Origin: an uncultured Verrucomicrobiae bacterium
GTDB lineage: Bacteria > Verrucomicrobiota > Verrucomicrobiia > Chthoniobacterales > JACTMZ01
Assembly (NCBI GenBank): GCA_963776165.1
Contig: CAVZLI010000001.1
Span: 130,658-194,657, forward strand
Length of the DNA: 64,000 nucleotides
Direction of reading: 5' to 3'
The notes beneath the pieces are model-generated. The model saw only the letters and a list, made by a program, of their open reading frames with translations. It searched no databases and was not told the origin of the DNA. The position numbers and the translations under genes were made by a program. This document shows positions 9,386 through 63,972 of the stretch, one piece after another (position 1 is the stretch's first letter; the number at the start of each line of letters is the position of its first letter).

Positions 9386-10399
9386 TCAGCCGCCGGCTGA
9401 TTTCTCGAGGTGTCCGCCGAACTGGTAACGCATGGCCGAGCAGACTTTGTCCGAGAAGGCGGGTTCCTGCGAGCGGAAGCGGGCGTAGAGCGCCGCGCTG
9501 AGCACGTCGGCGGGGACGCCTTCCTCGATGGCGGCCATGATGGTCCAGCGGCCTTCGCCGGAGTCGGACACGCGGCCGGAAAATTTCTTCAATTCCGGAT
9601 CGTCGACCATGGACATGGCGATGAGGTCGAGGAGCCAGCATTGCACCACGCTGCCGCGGCGCCACAGCTCGGCGATCTCGTCGACCGGGAGGTGGTAGTC
9701 GAGGTCGTTTCCCATGCGCGGGGCGGTCTCGGCATCGTGCGAGACCGGACGCGAGTCGACGTCGGCATTTTTGAGAATGTCGAAGCCTTCGGCCAGGGCG
9801 GCCATCATGCCGTATTCCACGCCATTGTGGACCATCTTGACGAAGTGCCCGGCGCCGGCCGCGCCGCAGTGCAGGTAGCCGTCCTCGCTGGTGCCGCCCG
9901 CTTTATCGCGTCCGGGCGTGCGGGGCAGGTCGCCGCGTCCGGGGGCGATGGTTTTGAAGATCGGGTCGAGGTGCTGCACGGGCCCTTTCTCGCCGCCGAT
10001 CATGAGGCAGTAGCCGCGTTCGAGTCCCCACACGCCGCCGCTGGTGCCGCAGTCGATGTAGTGGATGCCCTGAGGCTCCAGTTCGCGGGCGCGGCGGCGG
10101 TCGTCGCGGAAGTAGGAGTTGCCGCCGTCGATGATGATGTCGTCCTTCTCGAAATGGGGGACGAGCGACTGGATGACTTTGTCGGTCACCGCGGCGGGGA
10201 CCATGATCCACGCGGCGCGGGGCTTCTCGAGCTTGGCGGCGAATTCCTCGAGCGAGGAGGCGCCGACCGCGCCTTCCTTGACCAGTTCCGCCACGGCGTC
10301 GGGGTGGGTGTCATAGACAACGCAGGTGTGTCCGTTTTTCATGAGGCGCCGCACGATGTTGGCGCCCATCCGGCCGAGTCCGATCATTCCGAGTTGCAT
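9386..10399 (-). CDS. gnd: 6-phosphogluconate dehydrogenase, decarboxylating (short type)
   Basis: Internal ATG at 10399 gives [19 protein letters not shown] (Rossmann GxGxxG). The conserved [13 protein letters not shown] motif is present. Confidence 0.8.
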
Positions 10400-51684: not shown

Positions 51685-53070
51685 TCAGAAATGCGAGGGC
51701 TTCCGCTGGAGGAAGCGGCCACGGCCAACGGTGCCGACGAACTTTCCGTCGCGGACGGCGACCTCGCCGCGGACGGTGACGATCGATGGGCGTCCCTCGA
51801 TTTCCCAGCCCTCGAAGGCATTGTAGTCGACGTTTTGGGTCTGGGTCTTGACCGAGAGTTTGCCGCGGTAGGACGGATCGTAGATGACAAGGTCGGCATC
51901 GGCCCCGGGTTGGATCACGCCCTTGCGCGGGTAGAGGTCGAAGATTTTCGCGGCATTGGTGCTGGCCACGGCGACCAACTGCTGGAGGGTCAGGCGCCCT
52001 TTTTTCACGCCGTGCGTGTAGAGCAGATTGATGCGGTCCTCGATGGACGGGATGCCATTGGGGATCTTGGTGAAGTCGTCTTGGCCCATCCGCTTCTTCT
52101 GTTCCTCGAAGTCGAACGGTGCGTGGTCCGTGCCGACGGTGTTGACCAAGCCGCTGGCCAGTCCGTCCCAGAGAATTTGCTGGTTCGAAACATCGCGCAG
52201 GGGCGGGGACATGACGAACTTGGCACCCTCGAAGTCGGGCTTCTCGGCGTAGGTTTTGTCGAGGACAAGGTATTGGATGAGGGTCTCGACGAACACATTC
52301 ACCCCGCGCTCACGCGCGTTGATCGCCTCGCGCAGGGCCTCGAGGCAGCTGAGGTGGACGATGTAAGTGTGCGCGCCGGTCAGGGCGGCGAAGGACATCA
52401 AATGGTGCACGCCCTCGGCTTCGACGTAAGGCGGCCGGCTGTCATGGTGGGCGTCGGGTCCGGTGCGGCCGGCGGCGAGGAGTTCTTTTTGCAACTGCGC
52501 GACGAGCGTTTCGTTCTCGCAGTGGGCCGTGACGATGACGCCGAGTTCTTTGGCCAGTTTGAGGGTTTCCCAAAGTTCGGTGTCATCGACCCCGAACGCG
52601 CCCTTGTAAGCGAGGAAGACTTTGAAGCTGCCCACGCCCTGTTTGACGATTTCGCGCAGTTGTTTGGCCGAGTCCGCGTCGAAGCGGGTCACCCCCATGT
52701 GGAAAGTGTAATCGCAGCAGGCCTTGCCCTCGGCCTGGGCCTGCCAAGTGGCAAAGCCCTCGGCCGGCGCCATGTCGCGCGAAGGACAGACCATTTCGAA
52801 AATCGTCGTGGTGCCCCCGACAAGTGCGGCTTTGGTGCCGGTCTCGTAATTGTCCTTCGAAACCGTGCCCATGAAGGGCAGGAAAATATGCGTGTGCGGG
52901 TCGATGAAGCCGGGGAAGACATGTTTGCCGGCAGCGTCGATCACTTCGGCGCCCGCGGGCGGGGTGATGTTCTGGTCGATCCGGTTGATGGTATCGCCTT
53001 CGCACAGGATGTCGGCGGTGTAGCGCGTGTCGGCGTTGATGATGTCGGCATTTTTAATGAGAAGTGACAT
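51685..53070 (-). CDS. dihydropyrimidinase / D-hydantoinase
   Basis: ATG at 53070 gives MSLLIKNADIIN...PGFIDPHTHI. The carbamylated-Lys region reads GSFKVFLAYKG. GTDHAPF is present. Confidence 0.85.
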   Translation of the reverse strand: MSLLIKNADIINADTRYTADILCEGDTINRIDQNITPPAGAEVIDAAGKHVFPGFIDPHTHIFLPFMGTVSKDNYETGTKAALVGGTTTIFEMVCPSRDMAPAEGFATWQAQAEGKACCDYTFHMGVTRFDADSAKQLREIVKQGVGSFKVFLAYKGAFGVDDTELWETLKLAKELGVIVTAHCENETLVAQLQKELLAAGRTGPDAHHDSRPPYVEAEGVHHLMSFAALTGAHTYIVHLSCLEALREAINARERGVNVFVETLIQYLVLDKTYAEKPDFEGAKFVMSPPLRDVSNQQILWDGLASGLVNTVGTDHAPFDFEEQKKRMGQDDFTKIPNGIPSIEDRINLLYTHGVKKGRLTLQQLVAVASTNAAKIFDLYPRKGVIQPGADADLVIYDPSYRGKLSVKTQTQNVDYNAFEGWEIEGRPSIVTVRGEVAVRDGKFVGTVGRGRFLQRKPSHF

Positions 53071-53506
53071 GGGACTTGTGACGTGTGACGAGTTGGGTGT
53101 TGTTACTTGAGCGTGGTAAGCTTGCGGCGGAGACCGTTGAGCATGCGGCGGAGTTCGTCGACGAGACCTGTGGCATTGGCGGTTTCTTGCGAATTTAGAA
53201 GTTTCAAGTCCTGACACAGGGTCAGTTGGGTGTCGAGTTCGGCCACCGATCCCTCGGCGTGGGAGATGAACTGGATGAACTCACCGGTGGTGTGGCGCGC
53301 CTGGCCTTCGGCGATGTTCGAAGGGACTGATACAGCGGCGCGGCGCATCTGCGACACAAGGCCGAACTTTTCATCGGCCGGCAACTTCCTTGTGAGAAGG
53401 TAAATCTCACGCGCGAGGGAGATGCCTTTTTGCCAAACAACGAGATCACGATATCCCTGCGCTTTCGGATTGTCGTGCTTGTCACTCGTCACAAGTCACA
53501 TGTCAC
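53064..53506 (-). other. IVS-like cassette: four-helix-bundle gene bracketed by 26-bp inverted arrays of tandem heptamers
   Basis: The left array at 53064-53089 reads GTGACAT GGGACTT GTGACGT GTGAC. The right array at 53481-53506 reads GTCACTC GTCACAA GTCACAT GTCAC. They are complementary at 24 of 26 positions by my alignment. The arrays contain the dihydropyrimidinase ATG and the four-helix-bundle GTG. Confidence 0.6.
53103..53492 (-). CDS. four-helix-bundle protein (23S rRNA intervening-sequence protein / Avd family)
   Basis: 129-aa ORF with YRDLVVWQKGISLAREIYLLT...GLVSQMRRAAVSVPSNIAEGQAR...HAEGSVAELDTQL, the family signature. Confidence 0.85.
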   Translation of the reverse strand: MTSDKHDNPKAQGYRDLVVWQKGISLAREIYLLTRKLPADEKFGLVSQMRRAAVSVPSNIAEGQARHTTGEFIQFISHAEGSVAELDTQLTLCQDLKLLNSQETANATGLVDELRRMLNGLRRKLTTLK

Positions 53507-53512
53507 AAGGTT

Positions 53513-55006
53513 CTATTTGTCCGACCAAATAGAACCCTCCCCGTAGCTGAACCAGCGGGTGGTGGTGACTTTTTGCTGGGTGTAGAAGGCGACGCTTTCG
53601 CGGCCTTGGATGTGGAGGTCGCCGAAGAACGATTGGTGCCATCCGCTGAAGGGGAAGAAGGCCATGGGGGCGGGGACGCCGATGTTCACGCCGACCATGC
53701 CGGCTTGGATGCGGTGACGGAATTCGCGGGCCGCTTTGCCGCTTCGCGTGAAAATGGCGGCGCCGTTGCCGTAGATGGAGCGGTTGGCCAGTTCGATGGC
53801 GGAGTCGAGGTCTTCCATGCGGACGACGTTGAGCACGGGGCCGAAAACTTCTTCTTTCATGGTGATCATGTCGGGCAGGACGTGATCGAGGACGGTGGGG
53901 CCGACGTAGAAACCTTTCGGGGCGGACTCCACTTTGGTGTGGCGTCCGTCGGTGAGGGGTTTGGCGCCTTGGTCGGCGGCTTGGGTGATGAGGTTGCAGA
54001 CGCGGTCGGCGTGTTCGCGGGTGATGACGGCGCCCATCTGGGCCTGCGGGTCGCGGTCGGTCGGGCCGACGCGGATTTTGGCAACGACATCGACCAGCGC
54101 GGGCAGGACGGTGTGGGCCGCATCGCCGATGGCCACGGCGGTGGAGCTGGCCATGCAGCGCTCGCCGGCGCAGCCGAAGGCGGATTCGACGAGGCCGGTG
54201 GCGGAATTGGTCACGTCCGCATCGGGCATGATAAGAACGAAATTTTTCGCGCCCCCGGCGGCTTGCACGCGTTTGCCGTGAGCCGTGCCCGTTTCGTAGA
54301 TGTATTTGGCGATCGGGGTCGAGCCGACGAAGGAGACGGCTTTGATCGTCGGGTGCTTGAGGATGGCATCGACGGCTTCGCGTCCGCCGTGAACGAGGTT
54401 GAGCACCCCGGGAGGAAGCCCGGCCTTTTCCGCGAGCTGCGCGATGCGGATCGAGGTGAGCGGGACTTTCTCGCTGGGTTTGAGGACAAAGGTGTTTCCG
54501 CAGGCGATAGCCATGGGCCACATCCAGAGGGGGACCATGGCGGGGAAATTGAATGGCGTGATGCCGGCGACCACGCCGAGAGGTTGGCGGATGGAATCGC
54601 AATCGATGCCGCGCGCCACATTTTCCAGCGACTCGCCCATGAGGAGCGAGGGCGCGCCGCAGGCGAATTCGATGTTTTCCAGCCCGCGTCGCACATCGCC
54701 GCGTGCCTCGGCCAGCGTCTTGCCGTGCTCGCGGGTCACGCTTTGGGCCAGTTCCTCGAAGTGGTCTTCGAGCATGACCTTGAGCTTCATCAAAATGCGG
54801 GCGCGTTCGACGGGCGGGGTTTCCATCCACTTGGGGAATGCCTCGGCGGCGGCGCGCACGGCTTGATCGACGGTGTCGGCGCCACAGAGCGGGGTCTCGG
54901 CGATGACTTCGCCGACGGACGGATTATGGACTGGGGTGGTGGGGACGCCGGACACATTGGTCCATTCGCCGCCGATGAAAAGCGGGACAGGGAGGATTTT
55001 GCTCAT
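53513..55006 (-). CDS. mmsA: CoA-acylating methylmalonate-semialdehyde dehydrogenase
   Basis: 497-aa ORF with aldehyde dehydrogenase motifs (FPAMVPLWMWP, the catalytic Cys in GERCMA) and an MmsA-type N-terminus LFIGGEW. Confidence 0.88.
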   Translation of the reverse strand: MSKILPVPLFIGGEWTNVSGVPTTPVHNPSVGEVIAETPLCGADTVDQAVRAAAEAFPKWMETPPVERARILMKLKVMLEDHFEELAQSVTREHGKTLAEARGDVRRGLENIEFACGAPSLLMGESLENVARGIDCDSIRQPLGVVAGITPFNFPAMVPLWMWPMAIACGNTFVLKPSEKVPLTSIRIAQLAEKAGLPPGVLNLVHGGREAVDAILKHPTIKAVSFVGSTPIAKYIYETGTAHGKRVQAAGGAKNFVLIMPDADVTNSATGLVESAFGCAGERCMASSTAVAIGDAAHTVLPALVDVVAKIRVGPTDRDPQAQMGAVITREHADRVCNLITQAADQGAKPLTDGRHTKVESAPKGFYVGPTVLDHVLPDMITMKEEVFGPVLNVVRMEDLDSAIELANRSIYGNGAAIFTRSGKAAREFRHRIQAGMVGVNIGVPAPMAFFPFSGWHQSFFGDLHIQGRESVAFYTQQKVTTTRWFSYGEGSIWSDK

Positions 55007-55204: not shown

Positions 55205-55272
55205 GATTTCAGATTTGAAATTTAAGATTTCAGGAGGCGGGAGGATTGGAGGTTTGAAATTTCAGATTCCAG
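55205..55272. repeat. two adjacent arrays of RATTTSA tandem heptamers (no associated gene)
   Basis: The first array reads GATTTCA GATTTGA AATTTAA GATTTCA. After a 9-nt spacer the second reads GATTGGA GGTTTGA AATTTCA GATTCCA. It is strongly AT-rich in a high-GC context. Confidence 0.8.
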
Positions 55273-55281
55273 AAGAAAGAC

Positions 55282-55309
55282 AAAAAGCCCGGGGAATTGC
55301 TTCCCCGGG
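55282..55309 (-). terminator. rho-independent terminator downstream of nrdJ
   Basis: On the minus strand the hairpin CCCGGGG-aagcaatt-CCCCGGG is followed by CTTTTTGTCTTTCTT. It starts about 35 nt after the nrdJ stop. Confidence 0.65.
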
Positions 55310-55343
55310 CCCGGTTTGGTGCGCGAAGTGGCGCAACAATCTT

Positions 55344-58513
<3,170 letters not shown>

Positions 58514-58585
58514 GGAATCTTGTCTCGTAGGGGAGGGGTTAGCGCCAACCAGTCAACCCTTGGGGGAGATCACCGGCAGACCCGA

Positions 58586-58625
58586 CACCACAATATGTGG
58601 GTGAGTTGTGCTATAAAGCCACAAC
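58586..58625. promoter_or_regulatory. two adjacent inverted repeats with a CCACAA/TTGTGG core upstream of nrdJ (NrdR-box-like)
   Basis: CACCACAATATGTGGGTG lies at 58586-58603 and GTTGTGCTATAAAGCCACAAC at 58605-58625. Their centres are about 21 bp apart, 73-112 nt upstream of the nrdJ ATG. They do not match the canonical 16-bp NrdR box exactly. Confidence 0.45.
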
Positions 58626-58768
58626 CTGTAGGGGTGGAAAAGAGATTTTTTGTGACAGCGCGAAAAAATTTTTAGCTGTTGAGGTTCAACTTGTTGCGCT
58701 GCAGAACGTGAGGTGCTGTTGGTGCTCGTAGGGGCACTTATTCACAATGGGTCTTCTCCGCGAGACCT

Positions 58769-61256: not shown

Positions 61257-62016
61257 TTACGATGCAGAGCGGAAAAAGCCGCGCTGTTTTTCCGAAATGG
61301 GCAGACCGAGCTTTTCCATGACCAGCAACATGTCCTCCCAGACTTTGCGCTTCTCGGTGTTGGAGCCGTTGCGGAGGAGGTAGGACGGATGATACGTGGG
61401 GAGCAGGGGAATGTTTGCGAATTCGTGCCAGCGGCCGCGCATGGCGGACATGGATTGGTCGGCGCCGGTGAGCCCGAGCCATGGCGGTTTTGCCGAGGGC
61501 GACGAGGACGCGCGGTTGGATGATGGCGATCTGTTCGCGCAGGTAGGGGAGGCAGCGTTGCATTTCGAGCGGCGTGGGGGGGCGGTTGCCGGGCGTGTTC
61601 GGCGGCATGTCGGGGCGGCATTTGAGGACGTTGGCGATGTAGACGTCGTCGCGGGTCAGGCCCATGGCGTTGATGATTTTGGTGAGGAGTTCGCCGGCGC
61701 GTCCGACGAAGGGCTCGCCTTGCTTGTCCTCATCCGCTCCGGGGGCCTCGCCGACGAACATGAGGTCGGCGTTGGGGTTGCCGGTGCCGAAGACGGTTTG
61801 CGTGCGAGACGCGGCGAGGTGCTCGCATTTGCGGCAAGCGCGGACTGTCTCGTTCAGCGCGGCGAGCTGCGCTGAACGAGAGATTTCAGATTTCAGATTT
61901 GAGATTTCAGATAATTGAGGTGAGGGCGTTTTGGCCAGGCGCGAGAGGGATTCGCGCGTGACGTCGGTGCGGGTGCGGCCGAGGAGGGACGCGGCGGGTG
62001 CGGAGGGATTGCTCAA
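61257..62016 (-). pseudogene. family-4 uracil-DNA glycosylase with one frameshift near 61476 and a heptamer-repeat-encoded N-terminal segment
   Basis: The frame of ORF 60445..62016 gives ...CRKCEHL...[22 protein letters not shown]...[11 protein letters not shown]. The sequence continues in ORF 61257..61451 and just upstream of it ([19 protein letters not shown]...[10 protein letters not shown]). Confidence 0.75.
61882..61916. repeat. RATTTSA heptamer array (5 units)
   Basis: GATTTCA GATTTCA GATTTGA GATTTCA GATAATT. It lies inside the UDG N-terminal reading frame, where it encodes [11 protein letters not shown]. Confidence 0.85.
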
Positions 62017-62621
62017 GGAGAGCGGTGGCTTCGTGGAGAGAGGGCATGATACGATATTTCAGATTGGAAATTTGAGATTTCAGAAGGCGGGGGTGTCTCG
62101 CTTTCGCTCGGCTCAGAGGAGCGTTTTGGAGGTTTTTTCGCCGGGTGTCCATCGGGGAGGGCGGCGTTGAGTTTTTCGATAAAGGCGTTGGCTTTTTTGC
62201 GTTGTTCGTGGCGGTTGCGTTCGGCGTTGCTGAGGTGGCGTTGGCCTTTGATGTCGGAATTTTGCAGGGACTCGGCCCATTTGCGGAGCTGTCTCGAGCA
62301 GGATTCCGCCTGCAATTTCAGATTTGAAATCTGTGATTTGAGATCTTTGAGCGCGGGGCGGCGCTCGAAGTAACTGAGCATGGAACGGACTTCGCCGGCG
62401 GAGCCTCGGGCGATGTAGAGGAAGTTTAGCAGCTCGTTGGTCGTCCCACGTTCGAAACCTTCGGCGATGTTGTTGGAGACGGAGAGGGAGGCGCGGTCGA
62501 GTTGGTCGCGTTTCGACCACGTGATGCGGTCTTTGGCGGCCAAAATGAAATCCTCGCAGCCTTCGGCCAACGCAATAGCCGCGTTCCAGACCGGTAAATC
62601 TTCGAAGCGTTGGTAGGTCAT
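62013..62621 (-). CDS. four-helix-bundle protein (23S rRNA IVS protein / Avd family) with a repeat-derived C-terminal extension
   Basis: 202-aa ORF with [16 protein letters not shown]...[17 protein letters not shown]...[13 protein letters not shown]. Family members are usually about 120-130 aa. The tail reads through two heptamer arrays to a TGA that overlaps the UDG ORF start. Confidence 0.8.
62053..62085. repeat. RATTTSA heptamer array
   Basis: GATATTTCA GATTGGA AATTTGA GATTTCA GAA. It lies in the C-terminal tail of the four-helix-bundle ORF, where it encodes [11 protein letters not shown]. Confidence 0.8.
62314..62350. repeat. degenerate RATTTSA heptamer array inside the four-helix-bundle ORF
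   Basis: AATTTCA GATTTGA AATCTGT GATTTGA GATCTTT, encoding [13 protein letters not shown]. Confidence 0.7.
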
Positions 62622-62630
62622 GGTTTCGGG

Positions 62631-62660
62631 GATTTAAGATTTGAAATTTGAAATTTCAAA
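62631..62660. repeat. RATTTSA heptamer array between the cca stop and the four-helix-bundle start
   Basis: GATTTAA GATTTGA AATTTGA AATTTCA AA. It contains the 14-bp palindrome TTTGAAATTTCAAA and overlaps the cca stop codon. Confidence 0.85.
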
Positions 62661-63972
62661 CGGGGTAGTGCGCTTTAATCCAAGCGAGGGCTTCTTGGGT
62701 GGTGGTTAGTGTTCCTTCGAGTTGGGCGGTTTGGATGGATTCGAGGACTTGGCCGAAGTGGGGGCCGGGTTTCCAGCCGAGGGCCATGAGGTCGTGGCCG
62801 GTGAGGAGTGGCGGCGGGATGAGGGGTTCGTTGGCGAATTCTTCGGCTTTGGTTTTGAGAAAATCGTAATTGTCGAGAGCTCCGTGGCTGCTTTGGCAGT
62901 CGACGCGGTGGAGTTCGAGTTCCTCGTCGAAACCCTCGCGGGCCATGAAGCGTTTCAATTTGGCGGTGCGCATGTTCTGCACGTCTTTGAAGACCATGTG
63001 CTGCCGGACGGCTTCGGCGACGCGGTCGATGTCGTGGCGCGAGAAGCGGAGGCGCTCCATGAGTTTTTCTGTCATGGCCGCGCCGACGCGATCGTGTCCG
63101 CTGAAACGGATACGGTCTTCGTCCGCATGGTAACGGAAGGTGGGTGGCTTGCCGATGTCGTGGAAAAGCACGGAGAGCGCGAGGTTGGCGGGAGCGTCGG
63201 GCGGAAGGAGTTCCAGCATGGCGCGGGTGTGGACGAAGACGTCCCCCTCGGGATGGAATTGGGCCGGCTGTTCGCAGCCTTTGAGAGCTTCGATCTCGGG
63301 AAGGATTTGCTTGAGGAGTCCGCTTTGGTCGAGCAGGTCGAAGCCGAGGACGCGGCTCGGGTGGGCGAGGATTTTGACCAGCTCCTCGCGTATGCGCTCG
63401 GCGCTCACCGCGTGAATGTCCGTGGCGTGGGCGCGGAGAGCTGCCCATGTGGCGGGATCGATGTCATAGCCGAACCGCGCGGCGAAGCGGACAGCGCGGA
63501 GGAGGCGGAGTTTGTCTTCGCGAAATCGGGCCACAGGATCGCCGATGGCGCGGAGGGTCTGTGATTTCAGGTCCTCCCGGCCGCCGACGAAATCGATGAA
63601 TTGGTCCGCCACCGGATCGTGGAACATGCCATTGATGGTGAAATCGCGTCGCGCTGCGTCTTCTTCGGGCGTGGAAAAAGTGACCATCTCGGGACGGCGT
63701 CCGTCGATGTATTCGTGGTCCGAGCGGAAGGTCGCGACCTCGAAGGCGCGGCCGTGCTCCATGACGAGGATGACGCCAAAGTGGGCGCCGACGGCTTGGG
63801 TGTGCGGGAAAAGTTTCCGCACCTCCTCGGGTTTGGCCGAGGTGGCGATGTCGTAGTCGTGCGGATCAAGGCCGAGCAGTTCGTCGCGCACGCAACCGCC
63901 GGCGAAATAGGCCGTGTGTCCGGCCTCTTGCAGGCGGCGGGCAATGTCGGTGGCGGCGGATTTCGGGTCCAT
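62656..63972 (-). CDS. cca: CCA-adding tRNA nucleotidyltransferase with HD domain
   Basis: 438-aa ORF with AYFAGGCVRDELLG, DYDIAT, RRDFTINGM and the HD region LFHDIGKP. Confidence 0.85.
   Translation of the reverse strand: MDPKSAATDIARRLQEAGHTAYFAGGCVRDELLGLDPHDYDIATSAKPEEVRKLFPHTQAVGAHFGVILVMEHGRAFEVATFRSDHEYIDGRRPEMVTFSTPEEDAARRDFTINGMFHDPVADQFIDFVGGREDLKSQTLRAIGDPVARFREDKLRLLRAVRFAARFGYDIDPATWAALRAHATDIHAVSAERIREELVKILAHPSRVLGFDLLDQSGLLKQILPEIEALKGCEQPAQFHPEGDVFVHTRAMLELLPPDAPANLALSVLFHDIGKPPTFRYHADEDRIRFSGHDRVGAAMTEKLMERLRFSRHDIDRVAEAVRQHMVFKDVQNMRTAKLKRFMAREGFDEELELHRVDCQSSHGALDNYDFLKTKAEEFANEPLIPPPLLTGHDLMALGWKPGPHFGQVLESIQTAQLEGTLTTTQEALAWIKAHYPV

Follow-up and report, generated by a model that had tools for sequence, protein, structure and literature searches.

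The closest described relatives of the element considered here are the 23S rRNA intervening sequences (IVS) that carry an open reading frame (ORF). They are found in Coxiella burnetii, Leptospira, Xanthomonas and Brucella, and their product, S23p, is the family PF05635. In Coxiella three tandem GACAGAT heptamers and one degenerate copy stand ahead of the S23p ORF, and around this ORF there is a 28-bp stem which RNase III cuts at the first repeat (PMC4990558). Our subject is a gene of the same family, a four-helix-bundle gene surrounded by tandem heptamer arrays between cca and udg, in a 64-kb stretch of DNA from an uncultured Verrucomicrobiae bacterium (contig CAVZLI010000001.1). This whole stretch is called the window below. 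The cassette, together with a sister cassette built on another heptamer, had been noticed earlier by inspection of the letters; we refer to that note as the original prediction.

Tandem heptamers are also on record outside rRNA. The cyanobacterial STRR elements are reportedly heptameric simple repeats. Passages of MacGregor 2015 (PMC4679880) describe TAACTGA repeats at about 170 unrelated genes of Beggiatoaceae, Cyanobacteria and Bacteroidetes. Heptameric repeats of unknown function, GGGAATC in Xanthomonas and GGGGAYT in Nostoc, are mentioned in part of PMC4692102, and four-heptanucleotide elements of Geobacter, whose function is also given as unknown, in part of PMC2700814. The family itself appears in another literature: passages of Zhang & Ye 2014 and Altae-Tran 2023 (PMC3936711, PMC10910872) list the IVP genes, which lie inside cas loci, as CRISPR-associated. 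No link between such repeats and a four-helix-bundle or PF05635 gene occurs in the searched passages of PMC4679880, PMC4692102, PMC2700814, PMC3936711 and PMC10910872.

Our main finding is that the arrays are integral parts of the cassette, specific in position and strand, which have moved together with the gene over evolutionary time, and that each lineage of the gene owns its heptamer. On balance we take the locus to be an S23p/Avd-like four-helix-bundle cassette, kin of the ORF-bearing 23S rRNA IVS, which lives in the spacer of the cca-udg operon and whose arrays probably act in cis.

The gene order is cca, bundle gene, udg, acyltransferase gene, all on the minus strand. The bundle gene, as a mechanical ORF of 202 aa, occupies 62013..62621, and its conserved coding part (aa 1-168) lies at about 62116-62621. 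The upstream operon gene is cca (62656..63972), for the CCA-adding tRNA nucleotidyltransferase, and the downstream one is the family-4 uracil-DNA glycosylase (UDG) gene udg (61257..62047). Profile matches of the gene and its neighbours confirmed the predicted position between cca and the UDG gene.

Four AT-rich arrays accompany these genes, likewise on the minus strand, and their sense-strand unit is AAATYTS. The upstream array (62631..62662, about four units) contains the cca stop codon (62656-62658), folds into a local 10-bp hairpin and ends 9 nt before the ATG of the bundle gene, with no Shine-Dalgarno (SD) motif after it. The internal array (62311..62350, found by Tandem Repeats Finder and pattern scan) covers codons 93-102 at the start of helix 4. 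The downstream array (62053..62085), in sense orientation like the upstream one, is separated from a conserved TGA by the 21-nt spacer motif GAGCCGAGCGAAAGCGAGACA (62094..62114), and some 6 nt beyond its end comes the ATG (62045-62047) of an N-terminal segment of udg. The fourth array (61881..61916) lies within the udg frame, in the linker between this segment and the catalytic core.

Two consecutive RATTTSA units, with no more than two mismatches, were matched 33 times in the window, against 2.63 expected and 8 in the richest shuffle. These matches cluster at 61882-61909, 62055-62082, 62311-62341 and 62631-62662, and at an orphan double array, 55205-55271. Tandem Repeats Finder independently reported period 7 at 61881-61912 (4.6 copies), 62321-62350 and 62639-62660. 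By these two methods all four arrays of the original prediction are present exactly, or within a few bases of, where it had placed them.

What protein does this cassette encode? It matches PF05635 with 69.9 bits (cut-off 33.8) and TIGR02436 with 65.2 bits (cut-off 24). The AlphaFold2 model, a monomer, has helices at 10-29, 35-58, 61-86 and 89-120 with predicted local distance difference test (pLDDT) values above 90, and together with Foldseek it gives a four-helix-bundle fold resembling XCC0516 / BT_0352. The top Foldseek matches are 2GSC (TM-score 0.81-0.87, target-normalised) and 2RLD; Avd of the diversity-generating retroelements (DGR) is also among the best PDB matches, and phmmer recovers 2GSC as well. 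With the Avd equivalog model NF033474 no match was reported for the cca-udg protein, and the sister protein reached 33 bits against a cut-off of 80. The motif RxxxSxxxNxxE, which a passage of PMC3936711 gives as the conserved motif of the 23S rRNA IVP family, is present as R43, S47, N51 and E54, all invariant in the homologue alignment. Across the cca-udg orthologues the ratio of nonsynonymous to synonymous polymorphism (pN/pS) of the bundle gene is 0.12, showing that its protein is under strong purifying selection.

How closely are the arrays tied to this gene? A genome scan with the alignment of the bundle protein gave 80 loci in several orders of Verrucomicrobiota and in Desulfobacterales, and the later counts were made over 83 related loci. 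Here a period-7 detector, calibrated against other repeat periods, found 290 arrays in 1.2 Mb, compared with 23-38 for each of the periods 4, 5, 8, 10, 11 and 13. At 78 of the 83 loci an array lies no more than 150 nt from the gene. Arrays of the AAATYTS family number 4.3 per kb up to 150 nt from the gene, 0.11 per kb between 150 and 1000 nt and 0.003-0.02 per kb beyond, so that the arrays, more than 200-fold rarer beyond 1 kb, are not scattered through the genome. The cca-udg position is common to the seven closest relatives only, and cassettes of this lineage occur in at least 26 distinct flanking contexts, where their boundaries again coincide with arrays. Neither of the two outcomes named as refuting the original prediction was thus observed.

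One may ask whether such arrays are simply neutral microsatellite slippage, or contingency repeats, which sit in AT-rich spacers by chance. The large expansions in a few loci (228 nt in L025, 260 nt in L169, and L143) and the variable copy number among Coxiella strains would agree with this. However, period 7 is about 10-fold commoner than other periods, the arrays are imperfect with a mode of four units, and both their position and their sequence are conserved across orders and partly across phyla, while the synonymous sites of the internal array are constrained, as described below. Moreover, the arrays are identical in L002-L008, genomes that differ by 0-6 mismatches over 2.8 kb. Chance slippage is therefore a highly improbable account, and phase-variable contingency repeats were rejected on the imperfection of the arrays and the constancy of copy number in L002-L008.

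We also observed, as a separate matter, that in some cassettes the arrays have expanded to 100-260 nt, or up to about 37 units, where about four are typical. Examples are L025 6212-6439, L169 248-507, L143 3029-3156 and 3628-3850, L170 493-599 and 969-1066, and L035 1-99.

The internal array allows nucleotide and peptide to be distinguished. At 82 loci codons 93-102 are locked to GAT TTC AAA TCT CAA ATT TCA AAT TTG AAA, with the top codon used in 84-100% of cases at most positions, and the GC content of their third codon positions (GC3) is 0.29, versus 0.72 in the rest of the gene. This fixation of synonymous sites demonstrates selection or homogenisation at the nucleotide level. In translation (AAATCTC)3 gives KSQISNL, a heptad of a/d type compatible with a helix, and the predicted encoding of a 7-aa period by three heptamers, as SEISNLK or SQISNLK, was correct.

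A further reading, in line with the original prediction, is that the arrays are kept open since the repeat-encoded tails, the C-terminus of the bundle protein and the N-terminus of UDG, are functional protein parts. Several facts lean this way: the internal array encodes part of helix 4, other arrays lie in frame inside cas4 and cas1, and the udg array is in frame in all seven orthologues. In each of these an open frame runs from the ATG just after the post-bundle array, through a 42-codon segment and the array, to the catalytic core; the 42 codons are weakly constrained (pN/pS 0.17/0.42 in the seven orthologues), and the array peptide reads S[EQP]ISNLKSEM. The orthologues have a second ATG directly after the fourth array, where the window has ATC. 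The claim that an array forms part of the UDG ORF therefore holds for the orthologues, but in the window udg itself is split by two frameshifts, near 61975 and 61480.

The tail of the bundle protein fares worse. Its 120 closest homologues are all 143-176 aa long, mostly 166-169; they end either at the array or before it and match only about the N-terminal 83% of the 202-aa ORF. When the junction was aligned with two orthologous loci, the orthologue stop proved to be the TGA of a conserved TGAGCCGAGCGAAAGCGAGACA motif; just upstream of this TGA the window lacks one base, so that its frame runs on through the downstream array. The extra tail, present in the window only, is modelled as disordered (pLDDT below 50). 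In the relatives the ORF ends at the array: the median gap from stop to downstream array is 0 nt, the array usually supplies or abuts the stop, and the C-termini of some homologues read ...KSEI or ...LKSQI. The extension of the ORF to 202 aa thus results from a 1-nt indel.

Such frameshifts are numerous in the window. Compared with the L002 orthologues, the class II ribonucleotide reductase gene (55300-58520) shows at least six frame switches, udg two and the bundle gene one near its 3' end (61257-62120); cca, the acyltransferase gene, a 319-aa gene and DFP are all intact. The frameshifts at 55300-58520 and 61257-62120 look like assembly indel errors or local decay, and with udg, the reductase gene and the bundle gene affected, the ORF structure of this stretch is unreliable. 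The translation claims of the original prediction were thus mostly wrong. Since the fixed synonymous sites of the internal array also indicate that the nucleotides, not the peptide, are under selection, functional tails are a very unlikely reason for the arrays.

The sister cassette (53055..53520, minus strand) shows the same plan with a different unit. Its 129-aa bundle gene (53103..53492) lies between mmsA and the dihydropyrimidinase gene, and its inverted GTGACNN arrays pair as a terminal stem of about 26 bp around the entire ORF (z-score -3.06), as in a classical intervening sequence. A metagenome scan with the gene 53103..53492 was used to sample the GTGACNN lineage, and in 348 kb it gave 192 period-7 arrays versus 7-14 for other periods. 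Here (AGTGACR)n stands upstream and its reverse complement downstream, the mode is four units per side, and there are at least 16 contexts. The stems, measured at 55 loci, have a median length of 25 bp and are 89% Watson-Crick, and their two arms co-vary (rho 0.52). The proposal that both window cassettes have one architecture with unrelated heptamers is borne out by these arrays.

More distant paralogues carry other heptamers again; they were searched for with a truncated profile, the SQISNLK repeat having contaminated the iterative one. Arrays accompany 17 of the 20 plasmid-borne bundle genes from other phyla, 13 of them as inverted pairs and each with its own unit. The hosts of these plasmids are Nostocales, Pseudanabaena, Stanieria, Geminocystis, Picosynechococcus, Leptolyngbya, Azospirillum, Riemerella and Gemmatirosa. 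On the Gemmatirosa plasmid (L171) the repeat some 20 nt downstream of the bundle match (601-936) is an octamer, CTCCTGCC, in four copies, and period 7 is therefore a rule but not an absolute one. In a complete 50-kb plasmid stretch, from pANA02 of Anabaena sp. 90 (L180), all four period-7 arrays adjoin a bundle gene or a genuine DGR avd gene. Three TTGGTAA units at 10109-10127 lie between this avd and its reverse transcriptase, and the other period-7 arrays are all around the bundle gene of a type I-D cas operon. In sum, the gene-plus-arrays unit was found in Verrucomicrobiota, Desulfobacterales, Cyanobacteria, Bacteroidota, Alphaproteobacteria and soil metagenomes. With different heptamers in each lineage, the idea that architecture and not sequence is what persists receives strong support and is more general than originally proposed.

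Many of the cassettes lie in cas operons. At least 35 of the 83 relatives are within type I-C operons, usually between cas4 and cas1, for example in L042 (9196-11654), L024, L027, L033, L034, L086 and others. In these operons further arrays precede the start codons of cas4, cas1 and cas2, and pairs of arrays lie in frame inside cas4 and cas1; L042 9516-9606, for instance, reads ...DLRFEISDLRE...FKSQISNFK. Examples on plasmids occupy the cas6-cas4 and cmr2-cmr3 junctions. The window copy has no cas gene nearby. The IVP genes of cas operons may be hitch-hikers and not Cas components.

Where the arrays sit in relation to the codons is just as regular. In the lineage of the cca-udg cassette, with its AAATYTS unit, they are direct repeats that run in the sense direction on either side of the gene (sense:antisense 37:8 upstream and 33:7 downstream). 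The median gap from the upstream array to the ATG is 12 nt. An adjacent upstream array and an SD motif nearly exclude each other (44:2 vs 18:15, p = 1.4e-5, a value that ignores phylogeny). One array sits about 6-12 nt before the start codon, in the place where an SD motif is otherwise expected, and another is at the stop codon.

This position, the near exclusion of SD motifs and the AU-richness of the AAATYTS arrays in a genome of 62% GC are what one would expect of generic SD-independent translation enhancers, that is, of unstructured AU-rich leaders binding S1 or Csp-type proteins; the idea has been proposed for the TAACTGA repeats in a passage of PMC4679880. But in 64 kb the arrays occur only at the bundle cassettes, bar one orphan, and in the related loci their density falls more than 200-fold beyond 1 kb. 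Equivalent positions are occupied in other lineages by GC-rich heptamers (GTGACGA, AGTAGGG), and the internal array precedes no start codon at all. We consider generic enhancers a distinctly unlikely explanation.

A second question concerns the pairing of the two flanks. The original prediction stated that the upstream array can pair with the downstream one at about 17 of 21 positions, and this count is exact (shuffles average 11.3 and reach at most 14). The pairing is numerically real but energetically marginal here, at -9.7 kcal/mol, when set beside the stem of about 26 bp in the sister cassette. The minimum-free-energy fold of the cca-udg cassette leaves the array-array duplex unused and has no terminal stem, with a z-score of -0.79 against shuffles. 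A long-range stem for this cassette was rejected on the energy of the duplex.

The arrays could also be read at the level of DNA, as the ends of a mobile element, i.e. terminal repeats or attachment sites for a host or trans-acting enzyme, with no role in expression. In every context the cassette boundaries coincide with them, most lineages have them inverted in the manner of terminal inverted repeats, and the arms co-vary without an excess of G.U pairs. Array pairs without an ORF exist too, some of them in frame in cas4 and cas1. In addition, the spacer GAGCCGAGCGAAAGCGAGACA, which always has TGA before it and an array after it, changes sides among close relatives. It follows the cca stop in L001 (5929-5949), L009 and L010, and the bundle-gene stop in L002 (6509-6529), L008, L011 and the window (62094-62114), which suggests exchange between the two flanking arrays. 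However, there is no recombinase in or beside the cassettes, the arrays of the cca-udg lineage are direct and strand-biased, unlike terminal inverted repeats, and mobility would not call for a conserved internal array. That the arrays lie so close to start and stop codons and stand in for SD motifs points to expression, and they are stable in near-identical genomes. DNA ends of this kind are in our opinion a rather unlikely answer, though a serious competitor.

We prefer the reading of the locus as a cassette with cis-acting arrays, related to the rRNA IVS, and the following points weigh against it. The cca-udg cassette has no stable terminal stem (best duplex and z-score as above), and the RNase III part of the Coxiella analogy is therefore not transferable to it. 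In the inverted-array stems, G.U and A.C mismatches number 56 and 42 (p = 0.19), which does not separate the RNA level from the DNA level. Taxonomy confounds the exclusion between arrays and SD motifs. The cca protein search, which gave only relatives of at least 88% identity, yielded no empty cca-udg site, and insertion is therefore inferred from the diversity of contexts only. Binding of the bundle protein to the arrays is pure inference. Finally, lineage-specific heptamers could reflect simple co-inheritance, which does not require specific recognition.

How might such a cassette work? As cis-acting sites on the polycistronic transcript, the arrays would punctuate it, and they may set how the cassette gene and its downstream neighbour are translated or processed. 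Their most plausible binder would be the cassette's own bundle protein, presumably as a pentamer with one heptamer per subunit. Where the arrays are inverted, the stem they form would be a substrate of RNase III, as in Coxiella. The array-encoded peptides would then be a tolerated by-product.

Several other features of the window should be recorded. The orphan AAATYTS-type double array (55205..55271, no strand assigned) has no bundle gene; it consists of two arrays 20 nt apart, and it lies directly downstream of a strong minus-strand terminator hairpin (55285-55312) and upstream of tRNA-Gln. A similar ORF-less double array is found at a different junction in the relative L011 (13143-13223). 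From cca to udg, consensus scans restricted to sigma-70-type sites gave no promoter-like site, and there was no terminator-like site on the coding (minus) strand; a promoter or terminator role of the arrays was rejected within that scope. No Rfam family covers either cassette, and the Rfam search of the window gave no rRNA. A PADLOC match to LmuA was marginal (E = 0.0056) and was discarded. Upstream of the reductase gene there is an AT-rich patch (58560-58700, GC about 0.43) with the near-palindromic motifs CCACAATATGTGGG and GTGCTATAAAGCCACA, which we take to resemble NrdR boxes.

If the cassettes are as general as the distribution of arrays indicates, then what follows for the family? We suggest tentatively, and as less than an even prospect, that PF05635 pentamers may be sequence-specific binders of tandem heptamers, with about one unit per subunit, and that with their cognate arrays they may represent a widespread unrecognised class of self-contained cassettes which invades rRNA helices, operon spacers and cas loci. 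If this is true, one system would account for the excess of heptamers (STRR, TAACTGA, GGGAATC, Geobacter elements), for how the ORF-bearing rRNA IVS arose and for the "CRISPR-associated" IVP genes. Three puzzles that had been treated separately are tied together by the present data: the over-representation of heptamers, the role of the large family of four helix bundle / S23 ribosomal paralogues, and the origin and spread of the 23S rRNA IVS. More modestly, the recurring design of a gene plus arrays may be part of the reason why bacteria have so many 7-base tandem repeats. Regarded as one unit, the gene with about four heptamers per side offers biochemistry a concrete, testable pairing of protein and array. 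There is a practical side as well: array-encoded "SQISNLK" peptides can mislead annotation pipelines.

It remains to compare the cca-udg cassette with the known systems. The studies of CRISPR-associated 23S_rRNA_IVP genes concern the same family in cas loci, and in the passages of them that were searched the flanking arrays are undescribed. The repeats of Xanthomonas, Nostoc and Geobacter are, as far as the searched passages describe them, intergenic 7-nt arrays like ours, often with about four copies and sometimes in inverted pairs, and the same is reported of the STRR elements. According to the passages of PMC4679880, the TAACTGA repeats are direct tandem heptamers, in 2-6 copies, a few nucleotides before start codons, with some in frame within ORFs, and the arrays of the cca-udg lineage also precede start codons that have no SD motif. 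They differ in distribution, since the AAATYTS arrays are confined to the neighbourhood of the bundle gene, with one orphan site in 64 kb.

The DGR protein Avd has a homologous four-helix-bundle fold and is an RNA-binding pentamer; its pentamers bind RNA in the DGR ribonucleoprotein (8UB7). A heptamer array is present also between avd and the reverse transcriptase on pANA02. In contrast, neither a reverse transcriptase nor a pair of template and variable repeats lies near the cca-udg bundle gene.

The ORF-bearing 23S rRNA IVS share the most with these cassettes. Unlike them, the cca-udg cassette lies in the spacer of an mRNA operon and not in an rRNA helix, its arrays are direct and not inverted, and it forms no stable stem. 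Beyond the IVS plan it possesses an internal array and a fifth helix, and its protein is under strong purifying selection, while the Coxiella ORF is reported to be decaying. Like the IVS it is a compact element (about 430-600 nt). Its ORF runs in sense with the host transcript, being on the strand of cca and udg, and tandem heptamers immediately precede the ORF start. The sister cassette and most other lineages do have a terminal stem of about 25-28 bp, as in the IVS, and the sister cassette (53055-53520) matches the design of the Coxiella IVS in all but its location.

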